Below, in pieces: positions 14,725 through 30,726 of a stretch of DNA of 64,000 nucleotides (its first letter is position 1; each line of letters begins with the position of its first letter). The position numbers were made by a program, and so were the translations under genes. This DNA comes from Eledone cirrhosa (taxonomy: Eukaryota), in NCBI GenBank assembly GCA_964016885.1, contig OZ024743.1, positions 349,122,001-349,186,000 of the forward strand, written 5' to 3'. The notes beneath the pieces were generated by a model that was not told the DNA's origin, ran no database searches, and was given only the letters and a program-made list of their open reading frames with translations.

Positions 14725-15212
14725 GGGCAAGTAGATAGATTTAGACGGGCAAGCCGACAGAAAGACAGGGTGATAGATAGATAAATAGATAGAGAGTGAG
14801 AGAGAGAGACAGAGAGAGAGAGAGAAAGAGAGCGAGAGAGATAGAGTAAGAGCGACTGAGACAGATAGAAAGAGAGAGAGTGTGTAGAGATATTTTGGTT
14901 TTAATATGACTACCATTTTGTCCCTGGATAAGGTAAACATGCTGGTATAAACAATCTCCAAACAATATAACTAAGTTGGTACCTCAAATAATATTTCATT
15001 CAAATTTCTAATTATTGCTCATATGCTAAAATGTTCCTTGTATCTAAAGTCAGTTGAAAAACATTAATTATTTGAGATTTCCCCTTGTAATTACAAGAGA
15101 ACCACACTCGCAAAGTGTGTTTTAAATCTAATAACAAATGTCAAGGGTGTTGACTTCAATAACATCAGCCAATGCAAATTTTTGGAAATCTAGATTTTGC
15201 AGTAAGGAGAGG

Positions 15213-15605
15213 AAATAATTGTTTCTACTTTTGGCACAAGGCCAGCAATTATCCCAGCGTAATACTGGTACTTTATTTTATCGACCCCGTAAGGATGAAA
15301 GGCAAAGTTAACCTCGGCGGTATTTGAACTCAGACCATAAAGGGTCGTAACTCTTTGCTGCAAAGCATGGCGTCAGACCCTCTACCGATACTGCCAATCC
15401 ACCACTAGTAAGGAGAGGAAATAATTGTTTCTACTTTTGGCACAAGGCCAGCAATTATCCCAGTGTATTACTGGTACTTTATTTTATCGACCCCGTAAGG
15501 ATGAAAGGCAAAGTTAACCTCGGCGGGATTTGAACTCAGACCGTAAAGGGACGTAACTGTACTGCAAAGCATGGCGTCCGACCCTCTAACGATACTGCCA
15601 ATCCA
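15213..15605 (-). mobile_element. Two tandem tRNA-derived SINE copies (period 206 bp)
   Basis: Minus strand shows A-box TGGCAGTATCGG, B-box GAGTTCAAAT.CC and central core GCCTTTCATCCTTACGGGGTCGATAAAATAAAGTACCAG (resembles the Meta-domain of MetaSINEs as I recall it). Confidence 0.88.
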
Positions 15606-20202: not shown

Positions 20203-20740
20203 GCGTGTCAATAAAGTCTTTAGAATAGTAGACTGTGTGCCGTATATATCAGTAAATATACTTAATATCAGCTGGAATTTGAACTTTGTTGTACGTGTGT
20301 GATATTCTGTACGAATGCTGTCTTTTGTCACAGACCTATGCATAATTATTCTGCTGTCATTTTTGGCAGTTTATAATACCCGCTTCGAACTGCTCAGTTC
20401 ACGAAATATATTTTCCAGGGCAGAAGAGTGGCATTCAGACAATTCCTCTATAGTCCCGACTTAAATTTGTGTGATCGTTTGTGTGAAAGTTATTACGCCA
20501 ACATCTTTGAAAATTTGTGTTCGCTTCTTTAGAATAGGTAATAGACGAATCGTTGCGCTGTTTACAACAATTCCCGAAGGAACGGTTCCAGAAAGAGTTC
20601 AATGCTTTGCATAAGCACTGTAAAGATTCTATTGGATACAAAAGAGATTATATTTTGCAGAATAAATAAATTCTACTTTCAATATGTTGTGCATTTTCAC
20701 TTGAAGTGTTATTCTAAAGGCTTTATAACCACGCCAATTA
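20199..20740 (+). mobile_element. Mariner deletion derivative with transposase C-terminal remnant
   Basis: Imperfect TIRs (gcgtg..ataaag.ctttagaata at both ends). Internal frames give LYSPDLNLCDR and [35 protein letters not shown], mariner C-terminal motifs. Confidence 0.7.
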
Positions 20741-20747
20741 TATATGA

Positions 20748-20927
<180 letters not shown>

Positions 20928-21029
20928 TTAGTTTAGCGAGGTTTTTTATATGAAATCGTGTGTCGAAACAAATATTGTTATACTTGGGGAGGGTCATATT
21001 TGTGTAATATTGCCAGAATTAATAACAGA

Positions 21030-21773
21030 ACACACTCACTGTTTGGTTGGTTTTCGCTTCTCGCTGTCTTTTATATCTGCGATCTAACTTAATCGGTCCT
21101 CAATGTTGCCATTGACTGACCGACGGTCAAAAATAATACAGATACAATATAGACACAAACACATATATATAGTTTACATAATTTACATAAATCTTTCGTT
21201 GCACATCTGCAACATCGTCAGTGGTGTTATATTCATTGTTCCTCCTGTTGTGTTGTATGTCTACGCCATTTTTTTTTGTTCAGTCTGTCTATATATTTAT
21301 TTATTTATTTGCTTGTTTGTTTATCTTATTTTATTTTGTCTTCTTTGCGCATGCGTTTGCGTGTGTGTATAGTGTTACGTTTGCTGTGTGACTAGTGTGT
21401 ATAGTGTTGTGTCTGCTGGGTGACTAGTGTGTGTTTATGTGCTTGTTGTTATTGTGCTTGTGTATGTATTTATTTATCTTATTTTATTTTATTTTATTTA
21501 CTTATTTATACTTCTCTTAAGTCAGTGTTGTTTGTTTGGGTGTTGTTGTTGTTCCACTCATTCTTTCTGTTGTAGCTTTGGTCTTCTAATTTCTATTTCA
21601 CTGGCCTCTCTGATTTGCCTATCTGCTGGGTCATTCCTATGTTTAGATATTATTCTAATTTCTATGTTGTCTATGTTACCGTCATGTTGTTGTCTAGCAT
21701 GTTCGTATAGTACTGACCCGTGTTTTCGTCCTTTTAGTTCCCCCCAGTGTTGGTCTATCCTTTCACCTATGCT
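21030..21773 (-). mobile_element. 5'-truncated PLE 3' end: GIY-YIG C-terminal half plus 3' UTR with hammerhead-like motif
   Basis: Manual translation from 21773 downward: SIGERIDQHWGELKGRKHGSVLYEHARQQHDGNIDNIEIRIISKHRNDPADRQIREASEIEIRRPKL/NRKNEW (R..H, H...H, RQI.EA, N.K.EW motifs). Not in the ORF track. HHR-like CTGACGA-t-GTTGCA gatg TGCAAC-GAAA at ~21185-21227. Left boundary approximate. Confidence 0.75.
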
Positions 21774-22698
21774 ACAAGACTTGTTTCGCTTTGGTTGAAG
21801 CTCATCGAGGCCAACTACCCCACCTGTTTGCTGAGATCATTAATGTTATATTCTTATAGAAATCTAGTAAATAATCAGGAAACAGGTGGGCTAGTTGGCC
21901 TTGATAAGCTTCAACCAAAGCGAAACAAGTCTTGTCGGCTTATCTCCCCTGTTTGCTGAGATCAAAGTTAGTGAATTTGTTACTACTTTAAAACAATAGC
22001 TTACGGTCTTCAATATGCTTTTAATTAAGCATAAAGTGTATTGCAAAATACATTATATATACATCCATATATATATTGCTATTTTAGAGCTCCAATTCAA
22101 ATTTTTAATTTCTGTCTGACCAACAACCGCTCTGCATAATCAGCTCCTGATTATTTACTAGATTTTTATAAGAATATAACATCAATGATCTCAGCAAACA
22201 GGTGGGGTAGTTGGCCTTGATAAGCTTCAACCAAAGCGAAACAAGTCTTGTCGGCTTATCTCCCCTGTTTGCTGAGATCAAAGTGAGTGAATTTGTCACT
22301 ACTTTAAAACAATAGCTTACGGTCTTCAAAATGCTTTTAATTAAGCATAAAGTGTATTGCAAAATACATTATATATACATCCATATATATATTGCTATTT
22401 CAGAGCTCCAATTCTAATTTTTAATTTCTGCCTGACCAACAACCGCTCTGCATAATCAGCTCCTGATTATTTACTAGATTTCTATAAGAATATAACATCA
22501 ATGATCTCGGTAGATAGGAGGGGTAGTTGGCCTTGATAAGCTTCAACCAAAGCGAAACAAGACTTGTCGGCTTATCTCCCCTGTTTGCTGAGATCAAAGT
22601 AAGTGAATTTGTCACTTCTTTAAAACAATAGCTTACGGTCTTCAAAATGCGTTTAATTAAGCATAAAGTGTATTGCAAAATACATTATATATACATCC

Positions 22699-22705
<7 letters not shown>
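21774..22705 (+). repeat. 316-bp tandem array (~2.6 units, 21880-22705) preceded by an inverted partial unit (21774-21880); retrozyme-like or tandem pLTRs
   Basis: Core TTGATAA at 21901, 22217 and 22533 (exact 316-bp period). Duplicated spurious ORFs start 316 bp apart (22105 and 22421). Confidence 0.92.
22186..22280 (+). ncRNA. Type I hammerhead ribozyme with U3-A8 core and extended stem I (also at ~21880-21964 and 22502-22596)
   Basis: TGATCTCAGCAAACAGG...GGCC TTGATAA GCTT caacca AAGC GAAA CAAGTCTTG TC|GGCT...CCTGTTTGCTGAGATCA. 17-bp distal helix, 4-bp stem II, GUC site. Predicted cleavage after 21936, 22252 and 22568. Confidence 0.8.
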
Positions 22706-22766
<61 letters not shown>

Positions 22767-22863
22767 TTGAGGTTGGTAATGGCACATGGAATATATAAGA
22801 GACAGAATACTTTTTTGTGAAAAAACATAATTTTATAAGGTAAGGAAATAATAAAGGGTATAA

Positions 22864-22911
22864 AAAATGACCGGTTTCGATGGATCTGCAAAAACCATCT
22901 TTTCAAATGTT
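22864..22911 (-). ncRNA. Minimal pLTR hammerhead with U3-A8 core (mirror copy at 28230-28277, + strand)
   Basis: AACAT TTGAAAA GATGG-n11-CCATC GAAA CCGG TC|ATTTT. 5-bp stem II, palindromic ACCGGT stem III, GUC site; stem I weak (one mismatch). Confidence 0.65.
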
Positions 22912-23343
22912 GATTAATATTAAGAAAAATTAATAATACGAAGAGTTAAAATTTGAGACTTGAAACTTCAAGTATAAAATTCATTGTGGGATTTCATAGC
23001 AGTTTTCATCTAGGTAGCAACAACAGGTTGACTGCTGTGTCCCTTTCTGGTAGTGAATGAGAAGTTATTTGGGGTGTGGGTTATTTTATAAAGGTCAGAT
23101 TTAGCAATCACCAACTGGCCAGCTGCTGGTCAGTGAGGGGGTGGAAGCAATATACACACACATATCTTCCTGTGATGGGTAGGAGAGTGGAGCGTGATAG
23201 AAAGGGATTTAGTGCACTTACACCTATATATACACACATACCTTCATCCACACATACATACATATACATATACATATACACACATACATACACACACACA
23301 TATACATATACATACACACATACACACACACATATATACACAT

Positions 23344-23394
<51 letters not shown>

Positions 23395-23445
23395 TATATA
23401 TACATACACATACATCCAGATACACACATACATACACACATACAT

Positions 23446-23519
<74 letters not shown>

Positions 23520-24125
23520 CCCCACACATACATACACACACACACACATATATATATACATACACACATACAAACATACACACACACACACATATATATA
23601 CACACATACACACACATATATATACACACACACACACACGCATATATATATATATATACACACATACGCATACATCCAGATACCCACATACATACACACA
23701 CACACACACACGCACACACAATACATACATCCACATGCACACACATACACACACACACACACACATATACACATACATACACCCACACACAGAGAAATGG
23801 CCTTCAAATATATATATATATATATATACATACAGACACATATTTTTTCCATAATATAAGAAGTTGGGGCAGTGAAATTAAAATACAAGTCATTCTGATC
23901 ACATTGAGTTCTTCATGTAGATTGGGCCCCGCAACCGACAGTGGTGAATTCTGTGTGCGCATATATATATAGATATATGTGTGTGCACGTGCAGGGTTTA
24001 ACATGGATGTGTTGGTCACACAAAGGCATGGTCTGTCAATGAATAAACCTGATTCTACAGAATTGGTCTCTGGTCTTTAATAGTAGTGATTCCGTGCGTA
24101 TGTGTGTTTATATTTTATGACAATT

Positions 24126-26273
24126 CTATTGGGGTGATAACCCGTTTAGTTTTGGTTTAAATTTGTTAAGGAATAGATTTTCTTTGTTTATTCTTTGTTG
24201 TTGTGTGAACGAATCTGAGCACTTGTAGAAGGGGAAGATTTTAAAGTTGGGTAGTGTCATTCCTGCGCAGTTCGCAATATGGCTGCTCAAGGGGATTTTT
24301 CTTGTGTTAGCGTCCCGGATTTGTTGGCGCTGGATGGTCATTATTTTGCGTAATGAGGTGCCCGTCTGTCCTATGTAGTTGTGTTTGCACCCACCGCAAG
24401 TTATTGCGTAAATCAAGTTCTCCGAGTTGCAGGTGAAATTGTTTTTTACTGTAAATGTTTGGCCATCTTTGAATGTAAATGTTTGTCCTTCAGTGAGGTA
24501 GAGGCACGTTCCACAGTTTGTTCTACCACATTTGGTAACTGTAGGGTTGAGGATTGGTTTGGGTATATTTGGTCCAGTGAGAATGCGTTTAAGTGATTTG
24601 GGTTGTCTTTTACTTTTAAGGATCTTGTGTGTTTCAAGAATAGACTTCATTTTTACATCTTTAAGTAGGATGGGGAGGTTTTTGTGTAGGTGATCAAACA
24701 TTTCGGTATTTCTGGGGTTGAAAGTGGATACATATGGCAGGGTGTTGAGTGTGGTTTTCTGTTTCGGATTGTTAAGTTGATGGGGATTTAGGTGTTTTGC
24801 CCTGTCTATTCCATTGTTGATTATTTCAAGTGGAAAGGCTCTTAAGATAAGGGTGTCTTTTAGTTCCTTTAGTCTTTGCTCCCGTTTAGGTGGATCTGAT
24901 ACTATGGTACATATACGTTTGGCAAAATTGTAAGGAATGTTAAGTTTTGTATGTTTTGGGTGACTTGATGTGAAAAAGAGGTATTGCTTGGAATCTGTGG
25001 GTTTATAGAATATATCTGTATCTAATTTCCCGTCTATTACAGAGATGAGAATATCCAAGAAGGCTAATTCCTTAGGATTGGATTCCATTGTGAATTGTAT
25101 GTTATTATCGATGTTGTTTATCATATTTTTAAACGTAGTAAGTGAGTTCATGTCTTCTTGCCATAGGATAAAGCAGTCGTCTAGATATCTTTTCCAATTG
25201 GCTTTGAGGTGTGTGTGGAAAGAGTCTCCAAATAAGAGAAGGGACTGACTGTATATTTGTTGTTCATGGAATCCCATGACTAGGTTGGCATATGTGGGTG
25301 CTACTTTCGTGCCCATTGCCGTACCTGATACTTGTCTGTATGTTGAACCATTGAATGTGAAGTAGTTATTTTGTAGGATAAAGCGGAGTCCGTCAGTGAT
25401 AAAATCTGTGTTGATGCGTGTCGGTATTTCTGATGGGTGTGTGTTAAGCCAGTATTGGACTGCTGTTATTCCATAGTTGTGAGGTATGTTTGTGTAGAGG
25501 TTTATTACGTCAAAGGAGACAAGAATTGTATTTGCACTTACTGTTTTAGGGAGGTGTTTCAGCATGTCAAGGTCATCTCGTATGTAGCTCTGTATATGTT
25601 GTAGAAAGGGTTTCAGTAGGATGTCCAGAAAGTTACTAAGTCTGTGGGTTTCACATGTAGGGCCTGCTATAATTGGCCTGAGTTTTAGGTCTTCTGGTGG
25701 TGTTAGTTCAATGTAATTGTTGGTTGAGGTGTCACATGCATCGTTTATGGGTTTACATTTGTGAAGTTTCGGTAAGCCGTAAAAAGAGCTTGTATTGCAT
25801 TTGAAGTGGCTTATATAGTTAAACTCTTTTGTGGTTAAGCTGTTGCGGTATTTATTCAGTAAGGTCAAAAGGTTCCCCATTGTTTTGGTGTGTTTGTAGT
25901 TTTCTGTTTTTTCATAGTATGTGTTGTTTTCTAAAATGTTAAGTGCGAGGGTCCTATAGTAGTCCGTATTCATAATGACAACAGTACTGCCTTTATCGGC
26001 TTCTTTGATAGTTATCTCAGGGTTGTTTCTAAGTGTGAATAATTCTTCCCATTCGTGTGTAGATAGGTTTGATTTCGTGTGTTTATTTGTAATTTTTTCA
26101 TAGAGAAAGTTGGTGATGTGTTCGCAGTACGTGTCCAGTGCTTTATTTCTTCCCTTTTGTGGGCAGAAATTGCTTTTATTTCTAACCAGTGATTCGTCTT
26201 CAGTGTTGGTGTCGTTGTGGAAGAATTCCGTTAGTCGCAGCTTTCGGCAGTATTCCATGATGTCATCCTTCAT
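24126..26273 (-). CDS. PLE reverse transcriptase + GIY-YIG endonuclease (715 aa; frame is open upstream to ~26390)
   Basis: IKEADKGSTVVIMN, FYGLPKLHK, LRPIIAG, SFDVINLYTNIP, GTAMGTKVAPTYANL, WKRYLDD, YKPTD, C-x4-C-x2-C, NLIYAITCGGC..YIGQTG. The upstream extension reads KIINLSKTPLT..ILSKGLKFTPTP. Confidence 0.95.
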   Translation of the reverse strand: MKDDIMEYCRKLRLTEFFHNDTNTEDESLVRNKSNFCPQKGRNKALDTYCEHITNFLYEKITNKHTKSNLSTHEWEELFTLRNNPEITIKEADKGSTVVIMNTDYYRTLALNILENNTYYEKTENYKHTKTMGNLLTLLNKYRNSLTTKEFNYISHFKCNTSSFYGLPKLHKCKPINDACDTSTNNYIELTPPEDLKLRPIIAGPTCETHRLSNFLDILLKPFLQHIQSYIRDDLDMLKHLPKTVSANTILVSFDVINLYTNIPHNYGITAVQYWLNTHPSEIPTRINTDFITDGLRFILQNNYFTFNGSTYRQVSGTAMGTKVAPTYANLVMGFHEQQIYSQSLLLFGDSFHTHLKANWKRYLDDCFILWQEDMNSLTTFKNMINNIDNNIQFTMESNPKELAFLDILISVIDGKLDTDIFYKPTDSKQYLFFTSSHPKHTKLNIPYNFAKRICTIVSDPPKREQRLKELKDTLILRAFPLEIINNGIDRAKHLNPHQLNNPKQKTTLNTLPYVSTFNPRNTEMFDHLHKNLPILLKDVKMKSILETHKILKSKRQPKSLKRILTGPNIPKPILNPTVTKCGRTNCGTCLYLTEGQTFTFKDGQTFTVKNNFTCNSENLIYAITCGGCKHNYIGQTGTSLRKIMTIQRQQIRDANTRKIPLSSHIANCAGMTLPNFKIFPFYKCSDSFTQQQRINKENLFLNKFKPKLNGLSPQ

Positions 26274-26319
26274 TTCGGGGAAGTTTGGTTTACGTGGTGT
26301 AGGTGTAAATTTCAGGCCC

Positions 26320-27453
26320 TTACTTAAAATGTTGATTTGTGTGTTGGTTAGAGGTGTCTTTGAGAGGTTGATTATTTTTGGTTTCTCCTGAGGGGGGGGG
26401 GGGGCATCGAGTATCCTGGTATTTCAGGCTTTTCCCTATAAAAGGAATGTAGTTTTGTGTGTGATTATATTTTGTTGGTCTGTTGCGTGTGGGTCTGTAG
26501 CTTGTTGTTTCATGAGGGTGAATGTGATGGTGGGGGTGGTATGTGTTGTGGTCGTTGATGAGCAAGGGTTCTGTTGTTGGTTCATGTGGTCTGGGTGCGT
26601 TATTTCTGTGATACAGAGTGTTGAGGCTGGGGGGTTGTCTTTTGTTGGATTGAGGGTGATGTCTGGTGTGGTTGTGGGTAAGTTCTGTTGTGATTTCAAG
26701 TGGTCTGGGTGGATTTCTTCTGAGGAATGTGGTGTGTGTGTTGTGAGTTGGATCTATGTTATTTCGTCGTTGGTTTATGTAGGGGGCATTTCTACGGAAA
26801 CCTGTGTTGTGGTAGTTGGGTGTGTTTCTTTTGGTGTAGTTGGCCGTATTTGGTTTGTGTTGGTGGGGGATGTGCCTGTGGTTAGTGTGTGTTGGGTTTG
26901 GTGGTGTAAATGTGTCTGTTGTAGTTCTTGTTATGTTCAAATGCTTTATAAAGGGGTTACCTGTTTGGTGCGTCCTTTTAAAGTCTTCTTCATATTTGAG
27001 GAACCAGTTTTCGGATTTTTCCCACCGTTTAAGGGAAATAGTTTCTGCATTCTCGCAGTCCTGTTTCCACGATTTGATTAAATTTTGTAGGGTTGTTCCC
27101 TCGGCCTTTTTAGTGCATTCTTCCTCCATATTTTTATCAGTATCCTTATACTCTTGCTCGTTTGAGGTGGCCCTTAATTTTAGGAGTTCTATTTCCATGT
27201 TTATCCTGTTGAGTGACATTTGTTCACGGAGTTTTCTTTCTGGTTCAGGTTCGTTTGTAATATGTTTTATTTGGAATTTACGTGGTAAAACTATCGGTGT
27301 TGAGTTAATCCATTTTTGGTAAATTCCAGCTTTGTTGAGATTTTTTATCATATTCCAGAAAGTGAATTTTCTGGTTATTAGATGGTTTTTCCAGAGGTGT
27401 CCCATTTGGTTTTTGATATGGAGCAATGTCGTTTGTTCTGTGTTGGTATTCAT
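26320..27453 (-). CDS. N-terminal region / upstream ORF of the same PLE (helical, charged domain followed by H/T/N/P-rich linker)
   Basis: 377-aa open frame that overlaps the RT frame out of phase at a C13 run (26392-26404). The frame stays open upstream to the pLTR junction at ~27515, indicating 5' truncation. Confidence 0.75.
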   Translation of the reverse strand: MNTNTEQTTLLHIKNQMGHLWKNHLITRKFTFWNMIKNLNKAGIYQKWINSTPIVLPRKFQIKHITNEPEPERKLREQMSLNRINMEIELLKLRATSNEQEYKDTDKNMEEECTKKAEGTTLQNLIKSWKQDCENAETISLKRWEKSENWFLKYEEDFKRTHQTGNPFIKHLNITRTTTDTFTPPNPTHTNHRHIPHQHKPNTANYTKRNTPNYHNTGFRRNAPYINQRRNNIDPTHNTHTTFLRRNPPRPLEITTELTHNHTRHHPQSNKRQPPSLNTLYHRNNAPRPHEPTTEPLLINDHNTYHPHHHIHPHETTSYRPTRNRPTKYNHTQNYIPFIGKSLKYQDTRCPPPPSGETKNNQPLKDTSNQHTNQHFK

Positions 27454-27724
27454 AAGTTTTTCGATGGAGTTGCATACGTTTTGAACGTTTAAATAAATTT
27501 GGTTGTCAGTCGGTGATTATGGAAAAAATATATGTGTCTGTATGTATATATATATATATATATTTGAAGGCCATTTCTCTGTGTGTGGGTGTATGTATGT
27601 GTATATGTGTGTGTGTGTGTATGTGTGTGCATGTGGATGTATGTATTGTGTGTGCGTGTGTGTGTGTGTGTGTGTGTATGTGTGTATGTATGTGTGTATC
27701 TGGATGTATGTGTATGTATATATA

Positions 27725-27769
<45 letters not shown>

Positions 27770-27836
27770 ATGTGTATATATGTGTGTGTGTGTATGTGTG
27801 TATGTATATGTATATGTGTGTGTGTATGTATGTGTG

Positions 27837-27873
<37 letters not shown>

Positions 27874-28412
27874 GTATATGTATGTATGTGTGGATGAAGG
27901 TATGTGTGTATATATAGGTGTAAGTGCACTAAATCCCTTTCTATCACGCTCCACTCTCCTACCCATCACAGGAAGATATGTGTGTGTATATTGATTCCAT
28001 CCCCTCACTGACCAGCAGCTGGCCAGTTGGTGATTGCTAAATCTGACCTTTATAAAATAACCCACACCCCAAATAACTTCTCATTCACTACCAGAAAGGG
28101 ACACAGCAGTCAACCTGTTGTTGCTACCTAGATGAAAACTGCTATGGAATCCCACAATGAATTTTATACTTGAATTTTCAAGTCTCAAATTTTAACTCTT
28201 CGTATTATTAATTTTTCTTAATATTAATCAACATTTGAAAAGATGGCTTTTGCAGACCCATCGAAACCGGTCATTTTTTATACCCTTTATTATTTCCTTA
28301 CCTTATAAAATTATGTTTTTTCACAAAAAAGTATTCTGTCTCTTATATATTCCATGTGCCATACCAACCTCAATTTTCTCTATAACCTTCGTTTTGTGTA
28401 GAAAATTACACT

Positions 28413-28449
<37 letters not shown>

Positions 28450-29251: not shown

Positions 29252-29678
29252 ACAGGGGGGAAGAAGAAAAAAATGGCTTCACTTGTGCTTTCAACAAATT
29301 TATTTTCTTCACAAACTCCAAAAAGAATTTTTTTTTTTTCCGGATTAGAAAAAATGTTCTTAAACATTTTTTTTTATAAATTAAGTTGTTGTTTGTTGGT
29401 TAGGTCTTAGGAGTTCTTGGTTAACGTAGGAGGTATTGTTTCGTTTTTAGAATGACCTTTCACGCTGAGGTGCGCTTATCAAACTGATGTGTATGTGGTG
29501 TGTTGTTCTATATATAGGGATTTAACATGTCTTGTGTGGTGGGGTTTTTTTTCTCCCCCTTTAATAAGTGTAGGGGTGTAGGTGTGTTGAAAAAATGTTA
29601 ATAGCAGTAATGAGTTGAGACAGTGAGTAGGGTTGGGTGGGGAGAAATGTATGTATATGTCTGCATGTGTCTGTATGT

Positions 29679-29814: not shown

Positions 29815-30726
29815 TTGTGTGTGTATGCATTGATGTGTGAACGGATTTATATATACGGACATATGTATATGTGTGTGTGTATGTGTGCGTGTATGTGTGT
29901 ATGTGTGTATATGTATGCACATGTATGTATGTATGTATATATATACCCATGTGGAGGTATGAGTATATATTCGTGTGTGTACGTATGTGTATATGTGTTT
30001 TTATATGTGTCTCTATATGTTTTTATGTATGTATGTGGATGTATATGTACATGGGTGTGTGATTGATGGTGTGTGCCTATATATTCCTACATATGCCCGT
30101 GTGTGTATGTACGTGTATACACACATATATGTGTGTGTTGAACAAAGGACTAATTTTGGGATGGACGTAGAAAAATTATTCAGAAAAAAATAATTGTTTA
30201 CAAGCTTGGCAGGTGCGGTTTACCTATGACCATCTTCAATACAAAGGAATACTAAATGCTTTTTCCCCTGAATAAAGGAATTTTTCGAGAATGACCGGGG
30301 CAGGCCGCACTTGCTACATTTCTCCCCACCCAACCCTACTAACTGCCTCAACTCATTACTGCTATTAACATTTTTCAACACACCTACACCCCTACACTTA
30401 TTAAAGGTGGAGAAAAAACCCCCCACCACACCACAGACATGTTAAATCCCTATATATAGAACAACACACCACATACACATCAGTTTGATAAGCGCACCTC
30501 AGCGTGAAAGGTCTTTCTAAAAACGAAACAATACCTCCTACGTTAACCAAGAACTCCTAAGACCTAACCAACAACCAACAACTTAATTTATAAAAAAAAA
30601 TGTTTAAGAAAATGTTTTCTAATCCGGAAAAAAAAAAAAAAATTATTTTTGGATTTTGTGAAGAAAATAAATTTGTTGAAAGCACAAGTGAAGCCATTTT
30701 TTTCTTCTTCCCCCCTGTCTTAATAT
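29245..30726. mobile_element. PLE 3' remnant with ~405-bp inverted pLTRs (29245-29651 and 30315-30726)
   Basis: The arms are reverse complements. Each has TTGATAA GCGC acctca GCGT GAAA GGTC (plus copy at 30485-30513). The spacer holds a microsatellite and a possible decayed GIY-YIG tail (30140-30315). Confidence 0.75.

Follow-up and report, generated by a model that had tools for sequence, protein, structure and literature searches.

The locus described here lies in a 64,000-nucleotide stretch of the Eledone cirrhosa assembly (the window) and is a composite of a fragment of a Penelope-like element (PLE) and a non-coding tandem repeat, set between two TA-rich tracts. On the left is a (TA)n tract (20739..20924), the left target of the composite insertion; genome-wide, the ends of both the repeat and the PLE abut (TA)n. 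Next comes a 3′ fragment of ~848 nt (20928..21775, minus strand) of a PLE family that we call famA, which is 97.4% identical to copies L140 and L134 and comprises the C-terminal GIY-YIG part and the 3′ UTR/pLTR up to the long (tailed) end of famA. Within it, at 21188..21224 on the minus strand, famA carries a minimal hammerhead-like motif of its own (CUGACGA, stem II, GAAA), which was recognized by eye, has no Rfam match, and differs from that of the repeat. The repeat has a unit of 316 bp, numbered such that q1 is window position 22115 and the predicted ribozyme cut falls after q138. Two arms of it meet head to head: an inverted fragment of 107 nt (q31–q137, haplotype C; 21774..21880, minus strand) and a forward arm of 2.6 units (21875..22708, plus strand) that reaches the short end of the unit (q278) at 22708. 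The arms overlap by TCAG (21875..21878) at their 5′-5′ join. Predicted hammerhead cuts in the forward arm fall after 21936, 22252, and 22568, and its units 1 and 2 are of haplotype C and unit 3 of haplotype B, with the switch between about 22285 and 22509. A (TA)n(GA)n tract (22709..22763) forms the right target.

A previous sequence-only reading of the window drew attention to the left junction, and its description is confirmed in the assembly: a minus-strand unit copy ending ...GAAACAAGTCTTGT at 21774, 1 nt short of the predicted cut (C17), runs directly into the PLE. The GIY-YIG frame that it proposed holds in part. SIGERIDQHW...RQIREA...RPKL is a frame, open only to 21558, and NRKNEW, which had been assigned to it, belongs to another frame because the window copy of famA has one extra base near 21572. 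At the position of the join native famA reads ...GAGACAGCTCGT|AGCATAGG (YIGETARS), so the GT at 21774..21775 (minus strand; q136–137 of the unit) fits either partner. The inverted fragment matches Rfam HH9 in part (21773–21806, E = 0.056), and its core, UCGAUGA versus UUGAUAA, carries two private changes (21803–21807) that are found in 1 of 189 cores.

Both partners are repeats with high copy numbers, and the join could in principle be an assembly chimera of the two, which we regard as very improbable. Four public runs, available as contigs only and with both partners present, leave the junction unbridged (0/4), a result that says nothing on its absence; the run records are short collapsed contigs, perhaps from other individuals or species. 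Against a chimera, the private changes of the inverted fragment are missing from the adjacent array, the composite has proper TA-flanked ends, and like chimeras are present at 12 other loci. Compared with window 21450–22200, runs X1, X4, X5, and X6, labeled as three organisms from three studies, hold near-identical famA and unit sequence together, and three of them show a tandem (or circular) unit join.

Judged by its sequence, the unit is a new non-LTR retrozyme. It is non-coding and tandemly arranged, with arms of up to about nine units in the sampled loci and longer arrays in existence, and each unit has one predicted type I hammerhead with the core UUGAUAA/GAAA/GUC, a stem III of 4 bp, and the U3-A8 core variant, which is reported in the available text of PMC4209133. 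Rfam HH9 matches all three cores at 22.3–27 bits (best E = 0.0005), below the gathering score of 52, and a search at the gathering threshold gave no Rfam match in the window. The hammerhead region is predicted to fold into a long hairpin (z = −8.2), and the minimum-energy fold has stems I and II without stem III. Stem III covaries: among the commonest types, ACAA/TTGT is present in 131 and 103 cores and ACAT/ATGT, with the GTC loop, in 39. In a collinear sister repeat of 310 bp, the canonical CUGAAGA occupies the position of the unit core. We consider the hammerhead plausible, and its cleavage is a prediction. The family is large: exhaustive patterns for exact unit cores gave 588 in total of one pattern, and the pattern of a partly separate subfamily gave 469 matches. 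Unit arrays run through the predicted cut and are for the most part homogeneous, as a circular RNA or a homogeneous multimer would give; the public sequencing runs listed for these sequences included no RNA run. Apart from the usual short, dispersed insertions, the unit forms long satellite-like arrays at about 207.687–207.695 Mb on contig C2 and about 293.635–293.642 Mb on contig C1, which are possible source loci.

The sequence-only reading proposed that a reverse transcriptase left famA RNA and jumped onto the 3′ end of a self-cleaved unit RNA. Such a jump would go to a linear RNA, with GU as a clamp and the terminal C unpaired. In its favor, the join lies 1 nt from the predicted cut, and the hammerhead is plausible on the HH9 match (E = 0.0005) and the covariation of stem III. 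However, clustering of 3′ junctions at the GUC site, whose absence that reading itself had named as refuting, was not found, with 1 of 588 cores and 0 of 249 arm ends there. Among the 588 exact cores, 573 continue normally, 12 have another base at C17, and 3 have another base just after it; these 15 deviating cores comprise 13 substitutions, one short internal deletion, and the window copy, which alone exits into foreign DNA. A pattern for a variant-core subfamily, with other core variants outside it, gave two matches, both substitutions, and no break at the cut (0/2). None of the 249 arm 3′ ends in 144 other loci lies at q137–138, and six other joins of a unit 3′ end to a PLE are at q36, 79, 129, 248, 278, and about 311–316, none of them at the cut. 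Arm 5′ ends are flat along the unit (2/249 in q136–142 in the same 144 loci), with no pile-up at the cut; in an exhaustive pattern for arms starting there, 3 of 25 matches begin at q139, close to the one or two estimated under even spread. L006 has an in-arm haplotype switch away from the cut, like the right arm in the window, and mappable in-arm switches lie outside q132–171 in 2 of 2 cases. C17 itself is missing at the join. A given stretch of 3 nt would receive one of the 28 irregular ends with a probability of about 0.26. The window junction near the cut is thus a one-off, likely due to chance, and not a footprint of the cut site. As a general mechanism the jump onto cleaved ends is largely refuted, and at this locus it is quite unlikely. 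A switch between PLE RNA and unit RNA, the other part of the proposed template jump, stands as the likeliest origin of the join.

Unit insertions do have preferred ends, at two fixed sites. The 144 other loci consist of 40 consecutive loci on contig C1 (the first 40 in a list of 42 clusters), 24 from an identity-ranked list, and 80 more, of which 47 are new haplotype-B loci genome-wide and 33 are from C1–C2. Their 249 unit 3′ ends divide into 106 short ends (q273–280), 115 long ends (q301–315), and 28 others, the two sites being about 26–33 nt apart, and (TA)n starts 192 of 242 unit 3′ flanks. The loci hold 97 head-to-head arm pairs. When both ends are canonical, 72 of 77 pairs combine a short with a long end, 4 are long+long, and 1 is short+short (p about 1e-16 versus 50%). 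Short and long ends are also present in famA, where 15 of 16 two-armed copies among 63 famA loci combine one of each, with tails of about 44–58 nt in famA and about 57 nt in a sister family, famB, versus 26–33 nt in the unit. A "tail at one end" of PLE insertions is described in the available parts of PMC8557442 (Fig. 2 legend) and PMC3846280, and the unit ends match this published signature. Because most sampled unit insertions carry Penelope-type ends, Penelope enzymes likely spread the unit, and the suggestion of the sequence-only reading that PLE machinery mobilizes it is likely right on these family-wide short+long pairs. The paired-end signature cannot name the family because it is PLE-wide: a Neptune-type element in the window also has unequal ends, as judged by eye.

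The two arms agree in haplotype at 23 of 27 loci versus 29% by chance, and the divergence of units is lowest within an arm (1.8%), slightly higher between arms (2.2%), and highest between loci (3.0%). Shared arm haplotypes and low divergence fit a single RNA species, either a circle or a homogeneous multimer, as the template of both arms. At q268, terminal units have TA-like changes, which suggests annealing of the short end to the target. Related retrozyme families are present at L127:3750–4935, L007, L101, L197, and L285 (74–80% over q170–304), and the related 310-bp retrozyme with the canonical CUGAAGA core has the same two-armed short+long ends. The stretch best conserved among related retrozymes lies before the start sites and is a candidate enzyme-binding signal.

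Fusions of the unit to PLEs are not confined to the window. PLE sequence reading sense outward is joined to the unit at 12 of the 144 other loci, and a direct antisense join is present at one (L008). Partners were identified from blast comparisons with three references and from inspection of long frames, an approach that may overlook fusions to other UTRs. The partner is famA at L122 (on both arms), famB at L077, L123, L237, and L255, a Hydra-type element at L210, L224, L235, and L256, a Neptune-type element at L101 and L203, and an unplaced PLE at L110. DKT at L224 and CxCX5C at L210 match the Hydra definition in the available text of PMC8557442, and L235 and L256 were grouped with them at 30–47% protein identity; a Poseidon-like reading of these four loci was replaced, as the motifs fit the Hydra definition. 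Two further expectations of the sequence-only reading fail here. The junctions of unit copies do not adjoin one PLE family, and the fusion does not name the mobilizing family, as partners at other loci span several PLE lineages. From the famA side, 1 of 83 loci has a reverse join to a unit tail (L278). Some flanks of unit loci presumably belong to RTE/CR1. What looked like homology of the unit to the famB 5′ region at L101 is really a related retrozyme inserted at the end of famB. At L122:3536–5003, where famA lies on both unit arms, famA sequences also meet tail to tail in a palindrome at the short end, which looks like the homing of a second copy into the first.

The family famA is abundant and recently active. 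It is an element of 4,147 bp that occurs as full tandems, partial tandems, and inverted arms, with at least 4,136 copies of one 29-mer. An intact single ORF of 1,113 aa (L152:4570–7908, plus strand) has the order RT, CX4CX2C linker, and GIY-YIG with CCHH. It includes a long Asn-rich N-terminal segment and a DKS motif, and a long insert separates RT motifs A and B. The Asn-rich segment recalls the N-rich inserts described for rotifer Penelope ORFs in the available text of PMC3846280. Pfam gave a weak RVT_1 match to the famA protein (E = 0.004), GIY-YIG was not found by Pfam in the four proteins searched, and ESM Atlas neighbors of the famA protein carry GIY-YIG, HTH_animal, and RVT. By the definitions in PMC8557442 (linker, CCHH), and not from a tree, famA appears Neptune/Nematis-like. 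As far as the available text of that paper describes EN+ PLEs of the Neptune/Nematis type, famA resembles them in its single ORF, C-terminal GIY-YIG, tandem and partial-tandem copies, inverted 5′ arms, tail at one end, (TA)n target, and hammerhead-like pLTR motif, but differs in having DKS for DKG, the long insert between RT motifs A and B, and the Asn-rich N terminus. Its ORF is about 21% identical to that of the Neptune-type element in the window.

The unit is distinct from the pLTR of famA, as the sequence-only reading supposed. At loci picked by the famA 5′ UTR, full famA copies follow famA's own 3′ end, and the unit is missing from 20 of 20 such loci and from 4 longer stretches. Local alignment of the unit with the famA pLTR does not rise above shuffles, TA runs aside. 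Because the unit is absent upstream of famA and does not align above shuffles, it is not the native 5′ pLTR of famA. Two ideas about the famA side of the join were rejected. A truncation hot spot at the junction base, suggested by three other copies in the first 30 loci, came to 71 pattern matches versus 4,136, and among 30 matches inspected two were true truncations, the rest being point or indel variants. Trans-cleavage of famA RNA at GUA by the unit ribozyme would lack pairing in stem I (by eye), and there is no hot spot.

We favor, with moderate confidence, an origin of the locus in one two-ended insertion by a PLE enzyme into (TA)n, with a template switch in each arm, that of the left arm falling at GT. 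Directly visible are TA on both sides, the famA long end, the unit short end, the GT and TCAG overlaps, and the haplotype change in the right arm; the enzymatic steps would likely have been carried out by PLE machinery. The GIY-YIG nuclease would nick both strands of the (TA)n target, and one strand would prime at the short start site and the other 26–58 nt further 3′. The left arm would start on famA RNA and switch through the 2-nt GT microhomology to retrozyme RNA, independent of ribozyme cleavage, and the right arm would start on retrozyme RNA. Because reverse transcription would pass through the cut site, the template would be either circular or an uncleaved multimer. The two cDNAs would then join head to head, with the inversion near 21878 as an ordinary 5′-5′ join with TCAG overlap. 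The sequence-only reading had the inversion then produce the multimer, with a circular template being rolled round. However, the array ends at 22708 in a primed end of its own, and head-to-head joins like this inversion are usual for the unit (97 pairs in the 144 loci). Nor did the window array roll round one circle, because in the right arm haplotype B (unit 3) gives way to haplotype C between q171 and q79, at a distance from the cut.

A deletion between neighboring insertions would give the same sequence, which counts against the single-event model. In that case a famA copy, with a two-armed unit insertion later placed beside it, would have been joined to the unit by a deletion at GT and at the loose likeness between the hammerhead GAAAC..GU and the GET.R codons; imperfect likeness of unit and famA reaches about 14 nt upstream of the join. 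Opportunity for this is ample, as famA is very abundant and has the same (TA)n target, PLE ends often lie <500 nt from unit arrays, and famA or famB ends often lie beyond the TA tract beside them (e.g., L115, L124, L189, L231, and L234). Microhomology-mediated deletions in PLEs are reported in the available text of PMC3846280. However, most PLE ends facing the TA tract are 3′ ends, so deletion would be expected to yield mostly antisense joins, whereas 12 sense joins and 1 antisense join are seen. Moreover, the outer ends of the composite, famA long on the left and unit short on the right, obey the short+long rule across two elements, an outcome with even odds under deletion. We consider an origin by deletion unlikely, though less so than the jump onto a cleaved end. 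Also counting against a single event are the fusions that break the short+long rule (L123, short+short; L237, long+long), a unit tail shorter than those of famA and famB, and L124, at which the head-to-head partner is a non-PLE LINE-like RT. Some PLE partners look decayed (L210 and L235, with broken frames, L210 also holding a further insert), which suggests that the partners pre-existed.

On this view the unit is a non-LTR retrozyme that is likely mobilized in trans by TA-targeting PLEs, with famA and its sister famB as leading, not proven, candidate mobilizers. We tentatively extend the single-event insertion to a wider scheme, which is a serious possibility: TA-targeting PLEs would mobilize animal retrozyme circles by priming both strands at two fixed RNA sites, rolling from each, and hopping between co-localized retrozyme and PLE RNAs of several clades, and the ribozyme cut would have no part in integration.

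Metazoan non-LTR retrozymes are non-coding tandem units of 170–400 nt with one type I hammerhead each that coexist with PLEs (available text of PMC7229834 and bioRxiv 10.64898/2026.07.22.740005). PLEs were proposed as candidate retrozyme mobilizers in PMC7229834; the available text of bioRxiv 10.64898/2026.07.22.740005 adds PLE co-occurrence and pLTR likeness, with PLE matches in 21 of 57 Xenopus families, and leaves the mechanism open. The unit shares with these retrozymes its unit size, hammerhead type, and coexistence with PLEs but is mostly dispersed, two-armed, and TA-targeted, with fixed paired ends and direct PLE fusions, features that the available text of those reports does not describe. 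Unlike those 21 Xenopus families, it does not resemble the pLTRs of famA, famB, or the Neptune-type element in the window. Head-to-head inversions and fused RNAs are familiar from L1, in which twin priming of both strands gives the inversion and template switching can fuse two RNAs in one insertion. Unlike the products of L1 twin priming, unit arms start at fixed sites, and each can span several units; the unit also has no poly(A), and its target-site duplication is hidden in TA.

A closer parallel is PAc Poseidon, for which, according to the available text of PMC11167929, reverse transcription starts at two internal sites, both strands are extended, and hammerhead cleavage is not needed. The unit is like PAc in having two proposed start sites that define a tail, probable two-strand extension, AT-rich targets, and no ends at the cut. 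By the same account, the PAc start site is not homologous to the target and PAc acts in cis, whereas the short end of the unit consists of a TA run and the unit apparently moves in trans. A literature search, with supplements and most subscription papers outside its scope, returned no description of retrozyme insertion ends or PLE fusions.

The prior case for PLEs as the enzymes that spread animal non-LTR retrozymes consists, in the text available, of co-occurrence and pLTR likeness. The unit, with no detectable pLTR likeness, still has PLE-specific paired ends and physical PLE fusions, and it provides genomic evidence for the hypothesized PLE mobilization of retrozymes. The hypothesis now amounts to a defined assay, with start sites at q278 and q304–309, a (TA)n target, and an intact ORF. 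If PLEs do mobilize circles, this genome offers a direct insertion-level record together with an intact enzyme (famA). The strict short+long pairing, with arms usually of one haplotype, also bears on how PLEs make inverted, tailed insertions. The junction that prompted the analysis carries little weight compared with this family-wide footprint.

Other elements lie nearby in the window. The Neptune-type PLE (22764–28415) is a separate insertion into the (TA)n(GA)n tract that lies to the right of the unit array; its arms are inverted (22779–23855 and 27516–28362), its ends differ by about 40 nt, and its ORF is split by a frameshift into 398 aa and 765 aa. An inverted-repeat element has arms of 231 nt (93%) at 29328–29558 and 30409–30639, and a 206-bp two-copy SINE-like repeat lies at 15201–15605.
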